Positions 789 through 4,385 are shown, numbered from the stretch's first letter. The stretch is 4,385 nucleotides of DNA from a virus (IMGVR_UViG_2671180268_000009), one strand, 5' to 3'. The notes: generated by a model from the letters alone, not told the origin. Made by a program: numbers and translations.

Positions 789-1219
789 ATGAAAAATATT
801 GCGACAGGCGGCGTTCTGGAACGCATCCGCCGACTGACCCCGCCACATGTAACCGCCCCATTCAGAACGGTAGCGGAGTGGCGCGAGTGGCAACTTGCTG
901 AAGGCCAGAAACGTAGCGAGGAGATCAACCGCCTGAATCGCCAGTTGCGGGTGGAAAAAATTCTGAATCGCTCAGGCATCCAGCCGTTGCACCGTAAATG
1001 CTCGTTTGCGAATTACCAGGTGCAGAACGACGGCCAGCGATACGCGTTAAGCCAGGCGAAATCCATCGCCGATGAACTGATGACCGGGTGTACAAATTTT
1101 GCGTTCAGCGGAAAACCTGGTACCGGGAAGAATCACTTAGCGGCAGCTATCGGGAATCGCCTGCTGAAAGACGGTCAGACAGTGATTGTGGTTACCGTGG
1201 CTGATGTTATGAGCGCCCT
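789..1219 (+). CDS. DnaC-like replicative-helicase loader (phage YdaV/P-like AAA+ ATPase), 3' end lost in assembly gap
   Basis: ATG 789 follows a GGGGG SD-like tract at 775-779 and sits 6 nt after the upstream stop. The translation MKNIATGG...RSGIQPLHRKCSFANYQV...FAFSGKPGTGKNHLAAAIGNRLL...VVTVADVMSA parallels E. coli DnaC as recalled (MKNVGDLM...RSGIRPLHQNCSFENYRV...FIFSGKPGTGKNHLAAAICNELL...IITVADIMSA), including the Walker A motif GKPGTGKN. The ORF runs into N at 1220; the residues the ORF track reports after the gap are a read-through artefact. Confidence 0.85.
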
Positions 1220-1336: not shown

Positions 1337-1759
1337 ATGGCGAAACCTTTTACTCCCGAACAGCGGGAAGAACTGAAGACGCGAATTGTGGAACTCGTGC
1401 ATCAGGACGGTCGGGTCACGATTCGGCAGTTGTCAGATGAAACAGGTATCAGTCGTGCGTCTGTCGGTCGCTTATGCATAGAACTGGTCGCAAGTGGTGA
1501 TGTATATAATTCTGGCTACGGCTTATTCCCGTCTGAACAGGCTCGCAAGGACTGGCAAAGCGCCCGCAAAAAACTCTCGAGAGTAAAGGTGAGGAAACCG
1601 GTTGTTGTTGATCCGGACCTTATCTGGTCATTACCTGACGGAGAAATACGCCGCTACGACAGGCGCCTGAATATAATCTGTCGCGAGTGCCGGAAGAGCG
1701 AAGCTATGCAGCGTGTACTGGCTTTCTATCAGGGTAATTTTCAGGAGGCGATACTGTGA
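1337..1759 (+). CDS. Small winged-helix/HTH DNA-binding protein (prophage DUF977/YdaW-like, tentative)
   Basis: ATG 1337 is preceded by AGGAGG at 1327-1332 with a 4-nt spacer; 140 codons to TGA 1757-1759. The N-terminal segment RVTIRQLSDETGISRASVGRLCIELVASGDV has the pattern of a helix-turn-helix. Its position directly after the DnaT-like and DnaC-like genes matches the ydaU-ydaV-ydaW order of the Rac prophage as I recall it. The family assignment is from memory. Confidence 0.7.
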   Translation: MAKPFTPEQREELKTRIVELVHQDGRVTIRQLSDETGISRASVGRLCIELVASGDVYNSGYGLFPSEQARKDWQSARKKLSRVKVRKPVVVDPDLIWSLPDGEIRRYDRRLNIICRECRKSEAMQRVLAFYQGNFQEAIL

Positions 1760-2173: not shown

Positions 2174-2320
2174 TTAAATTTAGCACTGTTAAAAATTTAA
2201 TCCTTAACCGGAGGGATTTCTGCACCCTCAAATCATCAGGAGACCACCCGAAAGGGCGGGGAGCAGTCACACATCTGTTTCCGATAGCCCCGTTCTAATG
2301 CTACACTCTTTGATATTTTT
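2174..2320 (+). promoter_or_regulatory. Intergenic regulatory region upstream of the QueH-like gene, containing an AT-rich inverted repeat and a possible extended -10
   Basis: Inverted repeat ATTAAATTT (2173-2181) / AAATTTAAT (2193-2201) with an 11-nt spacer. GAGGG (2211-2215) / CCCTC (2225-2229) small hairpin. TTTGATATTTT at 2309-2319 resembles an extended -10 (TGn + TATTTT). No convincing SD precedes ATG 2321 or ATG 2342. Confidence 0.3.
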
Positions 2321-3007
2321 ATGACCCCAATAAACATATTTATGACAGTTGCTGATTTCAAACGGCCCAAATTGGAGCTCCCAAACGGGGCAAACAAACT
2401 ACTACTGCACTCTTGCTGTGCTCCATGTTCCGGTGAGGTGATGGAGGCGCTTCAGGCCTCGGGAATCGACTACACCATCTTTTTCTACAACCCGAACATT
2501 CATCCTCAGAAAGAGTATTTAATTCGTAAGGATGAGAATATTCGCTTTGCTGAACAACACGGCGTGCCGTTTATTGATGCTGATTACGACACAGACAACT
2601 GGTTTGAACGAGCCAAAGGAATGGAATGGGAGCCCGAACGAGGGATCCGTTGCACCATGTGTTTTGACATGCGTTTTGAGCGGACAGCGCTGTACGCCGC
2701 TGAAAATGGTTTCAGTGTGATCAGCAGTTCACTGGGCATTTCACGCTGGAAAAATATGCAGCAGGTTAACGACTGTGGGCGGCGAGCCGTCGCGCATTAT
2801 CCGGGCATGGTGTACTGGGATTATAACTGGCGCAAGCAGGGCGGCTCGTCCCGTATGATTGAAATCAGCAAGCGCGAAAAATTCTATCAGCAGGAATATT
2901 GTGGCTGTGTGTATTCTCTGCGCGATACCAATCTACACCGCAAATCTCAGGGACGCCCTCTTATCAAAATTGGTCAACTCCACTACGGTAAAGAAGAGAA
3001 GGAGTGA
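2321..3007 (+). CDS. queH: QueH-like epoxyqueuosine reductase (DUF208 family) carried as prophage cargo
   Basis: 228-codon ORF ending at TGA 3005-3007. The N-terminal motif [15 protein letters not shown] matches the conserved LLLHxCCAPCS signature I recall for DUF208/QueH, with further Cys pairs (RCTMCFD, YCGCVYS) consistent with an Fe-S/metal enzyme. Start is ambiguous between ATG 2321 and ATG 2342. Confidence 0.65.
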
Positions 3008-3028: not shown

Positions 3029-3058
3029 TTGATTTCATATTGGCGAGGTAAGTAGAAT
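3029..3058 (+). promoter_or_regulatory. Candidate sigma70-type promoter directed into the masked region
   Basis: TTGATT (3029-3034), 18-bp spacer, TAGAAT (3053-3058). Pattern match only. Confidence 0.25.
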
Positions 3059-3076
3059 GACTGCGGGTGCTTGAGG

Positions 3077-3113
3077 CTATCTGCTTCAGGCATGAACACC
3101 AAAAGGCAGATAG
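3077..3113. repeat. 8-bp perfect inverted repeat (CTATCTGC ... GCAGATAG) with 21-nt loop
   Basis: 3077-3084 CTATCTGC and 3106-3113 GCAGATAG are exact reverse complements. It lies just downstream of the candidate promoter and could be an operator or an RNA stem-loop. Confidence 0.4.
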
Positions 3114-3156
3114 AGAAAAGCCCCAGTTAACATTACGCGTCCGGCAAGACGCTTAA

Positions 3157-3449
3157 NNNNNNNNNNNNNNNNNNNNNNNNNNNNNNNNNNNNNNNNNNNN
3201 NNNNNNNNNNNNNNNNNNNNNNNNNNNNNNNNNNNNNNNNNNNNNNNNNNNNNNNNNNNNNNNNNNNNNNNNNNNNNNNNNNNNNNNNNNNNNNNNNNNN
3301 NNNNNNNNNNNNNNNNNNNNNNNNNNNNNNNNNNNNNNNNNNNNNNNNNNNNNNNNNNNNNNNNNNNNNNNNNNNNNNNNNNNNNNNNNNNNNNNNNNNN
3401 NNNNNNNNNNNNNNNNNNNNNNNNNNNNNNNNNNNNNNNNNNNNNNNNN
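3157..3449. other. Masked/unknown sequence (293 N)
   Basis: Uninterrupted n run at 3157-3449. The non-round length suggests a sized gap or masked segment; its content cannot be read. Confidence 0.98.
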
Positions 3450-3472
3450 CATCCTCAACGCACCCGCACTTA

Positions 3473-3516
3473 ACCCGCCCATCGCTGTGATCTCTCAGCG
3501 TTTCGGCGGGTTTTTT
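3473..3516 (+). terminator. Rho-independent terminator for a rightward transcript leaving the masked region
   Basis: ACCCGCC (3473-3479) pairs with GGCGGGT (3505-3511), with inner pairing CGCTG (3483-3487) / CAGCG (3496-3500), followed by TTTTTT at 3511-3516 and more T-rich sequence to 3527. Confidence 0.55.
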
Positions 3517-3645
3517 GTTGTTTATTTCCGGTGAATTTGATTCGCGCACCTTCGCAGATAGAATCGACTCACTTAAGTAGCGCGCAGGGAGAAGAGGGAT
3601 GGACCCCGAACAGGGGAGAGCTATTTATCTGGAAGGATTCTGAAG

Positions 3646-3933
3646 ATGAAAATCGAAGAATTGCGTGAAATTTTTAGTGAAAATGGCCTCTATGCTGTGC
3701 GCGTTGAGAATGGAGCGATTGTCAGCCATTGCCGCATTAGATGTTTGCAATCTCAACAAAGGAAGAGCGGTGCTGTGTTATTTTATTTTTGTAATGGACT
3801 TCTGACGGACGGTTTTATTTTGCGTGAGGACGAATTTGTCACATCATTACGGGTTTTGAAAGAGATTGGTTTTAAGGCTGGTTTTCTGCTTTTGCTGAAG
3901 AATAAACTCATCTACAATCTTGAGCAGGATTGA
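3646..3933 (+). CDS. Hypothetical protein, AT-rich orphan ORF (possible moron)
   Basis: ATG 3646 is preceded by GGAAGGA at 3631-3637 with an 8-nt spacer; 95 codons to TGA 3931-3933. It is visibly more A/T-rich than its neighbours (runs such as ttttatttttgtaatgg, ggttttattttg). I recognise no family. A promoter-like TTGATT (3537-3542) / TAGAAT (3558-3563) lies upstream, but its 15-bp spacer is short. Confidence 0.5.
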   Translation: MKIEELREIFSENGLYAVRVENGAIVSHCRIRCLQSQQRKSGAVLFYFCNGLLTDGFILREDEFVTSLRVLKEIGFKAGFLLLLKNKLIYNLEQD

Positions 3934-3971
3934 ACTCCTGCTGTGTAACACCGTGCCACCGGAGAAAGCCG

Positions 3972-4325
3972 ATGGCACATATACAACTGGTCAAACAAAC
4001 CTCTTCCGGATTACTTCTCCCGGCGACGCCGGAGAGTTGCGATTTTCTGCATCAAATCAAAATAGGTGAGTGGATACACGCAGACTTTAAGCGTGTGTGT
4101 AACTACGCATTCCACAAGCGTTTTTTCAAACTCCTGCAACTGGGTTTCGATTACTGGACTCCGGTCGGTGGGGCGATCACGCCTCGCGAACGAAAACTGG
4201 TGTCCGGTTTCGTTGATTACCTGTGTGAATCAGTAGGCCGGGAACATACGCCAGCTCTGAGCGAAGCCGCAGAGCAATTGAGGTGTACTGGCAATAGCGG
4301 ACACTACCATTTGTTCTTTTTTTAA
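3972..4325 (+). CDS. Conserved lambdoid-phage nin-region protein (DUF1367-like, tentative)
   Basis: ATG 3972 has GGAG at 3961-3964 with a 7-nt spacer; the ORF runs to TAA 4323-4325. The translation MAHIQLVKQTSSGLLLPATPESCDFLHQIKIGEWIHADFKRVCNYAFHKRFFKLLQLGFDYWTPVGG resembles a phage family I recall from the region between replication genes and Q. The ORF ends inside a T7 run (4317-4323) with odd terminal residues (HYHLFFF), so the 3' end may be unreliable. Confidence 0.55.
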   Translation: MAHIQLVKQTSSGLLLPATPESCDFLHQIKIGEWIHADFKRVCNYAFHKRFFKLLQLGFDYWTPVGGAITPRERKLVSGFVDYLCESVGREHTPALSEAAEQLRCTGNSGHYHLFFF

Positions 4326-4385
4326 GCAGCCATCTGATGATATTTTTCCCTGAAGGCTGCCGGGGAGATATTCCCCAGACGAGAG

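Follow-up and report, generated by a model that had tools for sequence, protein, structure and literature searches.

Escherichia coli makes epoxyqueuosine (oQ)-tRNA through Tgt and QueA, and is unable to make vitamin B12 de novo. The reductase QueH reportedly carries out a two-electron deoxygenation of the oQ epoxide by means of a [4Fe-4S] cluster and an adjacent iron, both of which are said to be held by a characteristic set of cysteines (CCxPC ... CxxC ... CGC). In E. coli and Salmonella, the conversion of oQ to queuosine (Q) is described as cobamide-dependent (Frey 1988, cited in PMC4646009), and oQ accumulates in aerobic growth (PMC7466049). QueG and QueH are found together as a redundant pair with different cofactors in Staphylococcus aureus and some streptococci (PMC13443448, PMC12632869). 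Our literature search, with Zallot 2017 and Li 2021 lying outside its coverage, found no description of a phage- or prophage-borne QueH.

We analyzed a 4,385-nt stretch of viral DNA (IMGVR_UViG_2671180268_000009, hereafter the window), which carries on its forward strand, at 2321-3007, an intact open reading frame encoding 228 amino acids. A sequence-only reading of this DNA had proposed the frame together with an 11-residue cysteine motif; both are present exactly, with the motif at aa 27-37 and a Pfam score far past chance. The true queH coding sequence is most likely 2342-3007, because the ATG at 2342 is unchanged in six of six aligned prophage and phage copies and the ATG at 2321 is replaced by ATT in one of these, from E. 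coli strain A10. The same start is indicated by the N-termini of orthologues, which match up with M8 of the longer frame (30 close orthologues start four to seven residues ahead of a conserved arginine, Arg15), and by the RefSeq start of WP_012421537.1 (221 aa), which lies at the position equivalent to 2342. We number residues below according to the 228-aa frame, and list the features of the locus in Table 1.

Table 1. Coordinates of queH and of the surrounding features in the window.
Feature	Position	Strand	Remarks
ydaV-type DnaC-like helicase loader, N-terminal part	789..1219	+	NCBIfam PRK12377, E=1.1e-81, DnaC; RefSeq ydaV; remainder N-masked, 1220-1320
DUF977 / Ren-like gene (ydaW-type)	1337..1759	+	Pfam DUF977, E=1.1e-33; phrog_142
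queH cassette 5' edge and leader	2266..2341	+	prophage homology from ~2266, from ~2293 in A10
TGCTACACT, extended -10-like element, candidate native queH promoter	2299..2307	+	34 nt upstream of ATG 2342
queH CDS, preferred start	2342..3007	+	221 aa; longest ORF, from 2321, 228 aa
CCAPC motif codons (C32-C33-A-P-C36)	2414..2428	+	align with T. maritima QueH C9, C10, D13
CxxC motif codons (C111-T-M-C114)	2651..2662	+	T. maritima C87/C90
CGC motif codons (C194-G-C196)	2900..2908	+	T. maritima C169/C171
hok/sok (hokD) type I toxin-antitoxin cassette, start	3029..3156	+	promoter-like site 3029-3058; Rfam sok 3065-3124; remainder masked, 3157-3449

The protein matches Pfam family PF02677 (QueH, formerly DUF208) over profile positions 1-174 of 175, with an E-value of 1.9e-65 and a score of 220.6 bits against a cut-off of 23.5, and the solved QueH of Thermotoga maritima (PDB 7lc5) aligns to aa 27-203 with E=5e-22. 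An NCBIfam scan returned no model for the product, which reflects the content of that library and does not count against family membership. An alignment of 77 full-length and diverse members of the family, chosen among representatives of clusters at 50% identity (4755 family matches), has seven conserved cysteine columns in which 67 to 77 of the 77 sequences have Cys; the prophage protein has Cys in all seven (C32, C33, C36, C111, C114, C194 and C196). Within the CCAPC motif, the columns of C32, C33 and C36 contain Cys in 75/77, 73/77 and 71/77 members, respectively. All seven cysteines are invariant in 30 close orthologues, and the other four hold across the family in 77/77 (C111), 76/77 (C114), 67/77 (C194) and 71/77 (C196) sequences. 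The column occupied by Asp13 in T. maritima QueH is Cys in 71 of the 77 members, making CCAPC the family norm and T. maritima the exception. The PDB contains C9S and D13N mutants of the T. maritima enzyme, the latter as entry 9dco.

An AlphaFold2 (AF2) model of the protein, made from 30 orthologues, has a pLDDT of 74.6 and a pTM of 0.76. The top five matches for this model in a Foldseek search of the PDB are all T. maritima QueH (E 1e-11 to 2e-10, TM-score normalized to the target 0.80-0.83, rmsd 2.7-4.1 Å), with 7lc7 and 7lc5 at the top of the list (E ~1e-11, TM 0.81-0.83). The next tier of matches, comprising TtuA, LarE and argininosuccinate synthase, has E-values of ~1e-5 and has only the generic PP-loop/adenine-nucleotide-hydrolase fold in common with the model. 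Overall, the assignment to DUF208/QueH made in the sequence-only reading is borne out by the full-length family match, the complete set of metal-binding cysteines and the predicted fold, and at the level of sequence the prophage gene is an intact member of the QueH family.

A copy of the gene with 100% identity is found in E. coli FDAARGOS_944, in a lambdoid prophage located between an integrase adjoining ybhA and the pgl/ybhD side. This prophage opens with the integrase, an excisionase and recombination genes, followed by a cI-like repressor, cro and YdaT, and continues with an O-like gene, ydaV (DnaC-like), the DUF977 gene, a 119-aa zinc-ribbon protein and QueH. Downstream of QueH are hokD, a hypothetical gene, DUF1367 (NinB-like), DUF1364 and DUF1133, then come four tRNA genes (Ile, Arg, Thr and Gly) and the genes for lysis, head and tail, with a gene for an ipaH effector last. 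The locus thus matches the prophage early operon that had been proposed: it is a Rac/Qin-type lambdoid early-right region, in which the replication module, queH and the nin/antiterminator module follow one another on the same strand. The effector gene, ipaHb, encodes a T3SS effector E3 ubiquitin ligase and lies beside a DNA-invertase fragment (16761-18587 of locus L015); it is a second cargo gene of the queH prophage, linked to virulence.

The DUF977 gene is the upstream neighbor of queH in most prophages we examined. The queH genes of E. coli O157:H7 (Z1768), ST131 (MB1159), A10 and 042 all lie downstream of it, with a small antisense ORF between the two genes in A10, and a short ORF annotated as 'DNA methyltransferase' separates them in the isolated phage HannyBb. 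In the window, the space between DUF977 and queH is occupied at 1814-2173 by the gene for the 119-aa protein (phrog_1621, unknown function), which has a zinc-ribbon-like CxxC pair and a basic coiled C-terminus. This gene is also present in FDAARGOS_944, and is missing from the prophages of O157, ST131 and 042, in which DUF977 directly precedes queH. The queH prophage of strain 042 is Rac itself, with kilR, sieB and trkG in the flanks. Further upstream in the window, the run of Ns within ydaV (1220-1320) is shorter than the sequence it masks; the offset to the identical RefSeq locus shifts by ~213 nt across the run, and coordinates of the two are not colinear at this point.

On the downstream side, the neighbor of queH varies among hokD, an NgoMIV-type restriction-modification pair and a DUF1971 gene. 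Variation of this kind is typical of a cargo slot and marks the position after queH as a hotspot for cargo; together with the DUF977 gene upstream, it agrees with the accessory slot described in the sequence-only reading. In O157:H7 Z1768, hokD is replaced directly after queH by an NgoMIV-family type II restriction endonuclease and a cytosine methyltransferase (6872-8882 of locus L010). In the window, the sok RNA (RF01794) is matched with 53.9 bits and E=2.2e-10, which is under the gathering score of 59, since the match is truncated by the mask. By eye, the hok/sok region (3029-3530) also contains a GC hairpin followed by a T-run, resembling a terminator, near 3470-3515. The last 107 bases of the window (4279-4385) are the end of an IS600 element (IS3 family), with 100% identity to plasmid-borne copies from Shigella and O157. 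This element breaks the DUF1367/NinB-like gene (3930-4278), whose reading frame continues into the IS and stops at 4325. Around queH itself we found no direct repeats and no tRNA genes, just two weak inverted-repeat pairs.

We next consider how widely the gene is distributed. A megablast search found queH in 995 of 5426 complete E. coli genomes (18%), nearly always as a single chromosomal copy, with query coverage of at least 80% in 985 of the 995. Database entries for the exact protein come from Shigella sonnei Ss046 and S. boydii, and it occurs on at least 1000 contigs. These occurrences and the IS600 end together suggest that the window originated in Shigella. Its molecular identity is already known, as RefSeq names the E. 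coli copies 'epoxyqueuosine reductase QueH'. The isolated phage HannyBb also carries queH (8001-8687 of locus L002), with 95.6% nucleotide identity. The remaining phage records retrieved by tblastn were not counted as phage carriage: these are 328-378 kb records named 'Acinetobacter phage MD-2021a' (78% identity, annotated 'putative prophage protein'), unannotated faecal contigs, and odd, unannotated Staphylococcus and Listeria 'phage' records with identical 35% matches. Both the Acinetobacter and the Staphylococcus/Listeria records are probably not phages.

The B12-dependent reductase gene queG is present in 5426 of the 5426 complete E. coli genomes, and so also in all 995 that have queH. Because of this, QueH in Escherichia is always a second enzyme and never a replacement; the pattern of non-orthologous replacement (queH without queG) was not seen in any of the 5426 genomes. 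The statement in the sequence-only reading that enterobacteria normally use QueG is therefore correct for E. coli, but does not extend to the order as a whole, where chromosomal QueH proteins with 79-92% identity to the prophage protein occur in Erwinia, Providencia, Serratia, Photorhabdus, Pantoea, Enterobacter, Kluyvera and others.

These chromosomal genes point to the source of the prophage copy. The best database relatives, named QueH and with 79-90% amino-acid identity, come from Erwinia, Providencia, Proteus, Photorhabdus, Gibbsiella, Pantoea, Ewingella, Rahnella, Dickeya and other genera. In Erwinia, queH has purL on one side and a two-component system on the other, and glnB, hmp and glyA are close by; in Providencia, it lies between tmcA/DUF441 and a group of genes including purC, bamC and dapA. 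We also scanned one genome per species and took the 80 most similar loci, among which Escherichia albertii ranks first (99% identity), followed by Scandinavium (92%), Kluyvera (91%) and Enterobacter (89-90%). E. albertii is the only one of these 80 species representatives in which queH has the phage DUF977 gene as a neighbor. In Scandinavium, Kluyvera and Enterobacter, the genes flanking queH encode dehydrogenase, hydrolase, DeoR, LysR and acetyltransferase proteins. Because its nearest relatives are chromosomal and have non-phage neighbors, the prophage gene is, as judged by sequence comparison, a captured chromosomal-type queH of Enterobacteriaceae, and its carriage by prophages appears confined to Escherichia and Shigella. 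The QueH subfamily as a whole is unusually conserved, with 75-80% amino-acid identity across Gamma-, Beta- and Alphaproteobacteria (Stenotrophomonas, Pseudomonas, Sphingomonas, Paracoccus and Rhizobium). A small number of record titles suggest contamination or mis-binning, namely Bacillus subtilis SK7B5, 'Candidatus Avacidaminococcus' and the Kingella/Simonsiella metagenome-assembled genomes.

Homology among the prophage copies begins ~50-75 nt upstream of ATG 2342, and the shared segment includes the extended -10-like element. The first eight bases of this element, TGCTACAC, are unchanged in six of six aligned prophage and phage copies; strain A10 differs by an A at the last base of the -10-like hexamer. 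The chromosomal queH of Erwinia has the identical nonamer, TGCTACACT, 31 nt upstream of the gene, and the contig P0001 has TGCTAAAAT 35 nt upstream of queH. Reading the upstream sequences of Providencia, Photorhabdus and Pantoea by eye, we found -10-like hexamers at ~32-34 nt. Conservation of this element between prophage and chromosomal genes suggests that queH arrived with its native promoter.

Other searches of the upstream region gave no further signals. A generic promoter and terminator scan did not call the -10-like element, found no good -35 element and returned nothing specific upstream of queH; its two promoter-like sites are at chance level (2 versus 1.4 expected) and both lie away from this region. 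The same scan found no terminator for queH, folding of the intergenic RNA upstream gave no significant structure (z = -0.89), and the leader (2308-2341) has no obvious Shine-Dalgarno sequence. The regulatory region of its own that the sequence-only reading had given the gene is thus only suggested: the conserved -10-like motif speaks for it, but neither a terminator nor an RNA structure was found. Just before the ATG, the leader has an A/U-rich stretch, ATAAAC(A/G)TATTT, common to the E. coli prophage copies and the chromosomal gene of Erwinia. We considered and rejected a CCACCC-GAAA-GGGCGG hairpin at ~2243-2260, which is specific to the context of the window and is not conserved among the aligned copies.

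Pairwise comparisons of the copies from the window, O157, ST131, 042, A10 and HannyBb gave dN/dS values of 0.02-0.05, with dS up to 0.45. We also performed amino-acid relative-rate tests of prophage copies against Scandinavium, Kluyvera and Enterobacter, with Serratia, Erwinia or Symbiopectobacterium as the outgroup. These tests revealed no significant acceleration of the window copy; the A10 copy alone was marginal, in 2 of 12 comparisons. Because dN/dS is this low and the rate has not accelerated, the prophage copies have evidently been kept under strong purifying selection, which indicates at the sequence level that the ancestral function was retained while the gene was phage-borne.

Overall, we consider it very probable that a functional QueH was captured by a lambdoid lineage of Escherichia and Shigella and has been kept as a moron, with predicted B12-independent completion of Q in the lysogen. 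A lambdoid phage lineage would have taken queH from an Enterobacteriaceae chromosome, probably with its own promoter, and within this lineage queH would now fill, as an accessory gene ('moron'), the space that separates the replication module from the NinB/antiterminator module. Its product is predicted to act as a cobalamin-independent iron-sulfur epoxyqueuosine reductase, converting oQ34 to Q34 in tRNA-Asp, tRNA-Asn, tRNA-His and tRNA-Tyr. We infer that the enzyme would be active and expressed from the prophage, and that host oQ/Q status or fitness may change as a result. Because E. coli QueG needs cobalamin, a lysogen expressing queH should be able to finish Q34 whatever the supply of B12. 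Any benefit of queH would arise only when cobalamin or QueG activity is limiting, because every host genome already has queG.

A further-reaching proposal is that the prophage takes control, through QueH, of the oQ-to-Q step, whose regulation in the course of phage infection is described in a recent preprint, and decouples the wobble chemistry of the lysogen's tRNA from cobalamin, altering fitness, phage susceptibility or biofilm formation. We regard this as doubtful and distinctly unlikely. One setting for such decoupling might be the loss of BtuB, a B12 transporter that doubles as a receptor for phages and colicins. If true, this would represent a tRNA-epitranscriptome type of lysogenic conversion, which we have not found described for any phage.

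A different possibility is that QueH serves the phage rather than the lysogen. Early-right (PR-type) read-through after induction or infection might raise Q34 for the translation of phage mRNAs rich in NAU and NAC codons, or might counter a host response that works by way of the oQ-to-Q step. The arrangement of the locus would allow this, as queH has the same orientation as cro and the replication and antiterminator genes, with no terminator found between them, and the gene is carried by an isolated phage, HannyBb. In addition, according to a 2026 preprint, Shewanella responds to phage infection with up-regulation of queG and a shift from oQ to Q, and Q affects phage resistance. However, the prophage copies have kept a native-looking promoter, which fits expression independent of the phage programme, and old, partly decayed Rac-type prophages such as that of strain 042 keep queH intact. 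We therefore judge a benefit to the phage to be rather unlikely, and retain a role for QueH in the lysogen as the preferred reading.

The gene could also be a neutral passenger, brought in by illegitimate recombination, hitch-hiking in a successful prophage lineage and useless beside QueG. Consistent with this, queG is universal in E. coli, queH is present in only 18% of the complete genomes, and the slot is a general cargo hotspot that also takes hok/sok and restriction-modification genes. Neutrality is nevertheless hard to reconcile with dN/dS of 0.02-0.05 over dS values up to 0.45, and there is no rate acceleration and nearly all copies are full length; a passenger role is thus very unlikely. 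Finally, it is highly improbable that QueH takes part in modifying phage DNA with 7-deazaguanine, or that its substrate is something other than tRNA oQ34: phages do use preQ0-derived bases in their DNA (PMC6884629), but no DpdA/TGT-like transglycosylase, FolE, QueC, QueD or QueE is annotated in the whole prophage, the deazaguanine-encoding viruses analyzed by Hutinet et al. yielded no QueA, QueG or QueH (PMC6884629), and the protein has 80-92% identity to housekeeping QueH with no rate shift and no PADLOC match. The deazaguanine-type nucleic-acid modification that the sequence-only reading had offered as an alternative was abandoned, since the DpdA/TGT-like and preQ0-synthesis partner genes are absent from the prophage annotation, and a role in a defense system was likewise rejected, PADLOC having returned no match for QueH.

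The gene itself is ordinary, and its carriage by phages is mildly novel. Phage annotation has a gap at this point: PHROGs places the family in phrog_3217, 'unknown function' (E=1.7e-138, with the profile beginning only at aa 34), and the HannyBb record annotates queH as a hypothetical protein, yet the protein is clearly QueH. If queH is expressed, almost one in five of the E. coli strains sequenced could complete queuosine without vitamin B12. Strains of ST131, O157:H7, O111 and APEC are among the carriers, and in Shigella sonnei the identical protein occurs widely. Expression would also make the Q/oQ status of tRNA dependent on strain and prophage, with a bearing on studies of Q-dependent translation, biofilm and virulence. 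Moreover, it would add a Q-specific tRNA-modification enzyme to the auxiliary genes of phages; a 2019 survey had no QueA, QueG or QueH in the viruses analyzed (PMC6884629).

Among structurally characterized proteins, the closest to the prophage protein is T. maritima QueH (PF02677, COG1636; PDB 7lc5, 7lc7 and 9deu), which has the full-length domain, the cysteine motifs and the predicted fold in common with it (TM 0.81-0.83, rmsd 2.7-2.9 Å). The prophage protein differs in being only ~31% identical, in having Cys in place of Asp13, and in having at its C-terminus a basic stretch of ~25 extra residues, conserved among proteobacterial orthologues; in addition, its gene sits on a prophage, in a host that also carries QueG. 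E. coli QueG (YjeS) is encoded in the same genomes and carries out the same reaction that is predicted for QueH. QueG nevertheless belongs to an unrelated family and needs cobalamin (B12) and Fe-S, whereas QueH needs iron only (PMC4646009, PMC13443448).

The chromosomal QueH proteins of Enterobacterales (Scandinavium, Kluyvera, Enterobacter, Erwinia, Providencia, Serratia and Photorhabdus) are 79-92% identical to the prophage protein and of similar length, and those of their genes whose upstream sequences were read have a -10-like element 31-35 nt before the start. In contrast to the prophage copy, which lies inside a lambdoid prophage, they are located among metabolic and housekeeping genes and have no phage neighbors. 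In its setting, queH resembles the morons and other cargo that lambdoid phages carry between the replication and nin/Q modules, such as hok/sok and restriction-modification genes, with which it has in common a variable slot, presence or absence among prophages, and a foreign origin. Unlike these, the cargo here is a tRNA-modification enzyme rather than a toxin, a defense system or a virulence factor.
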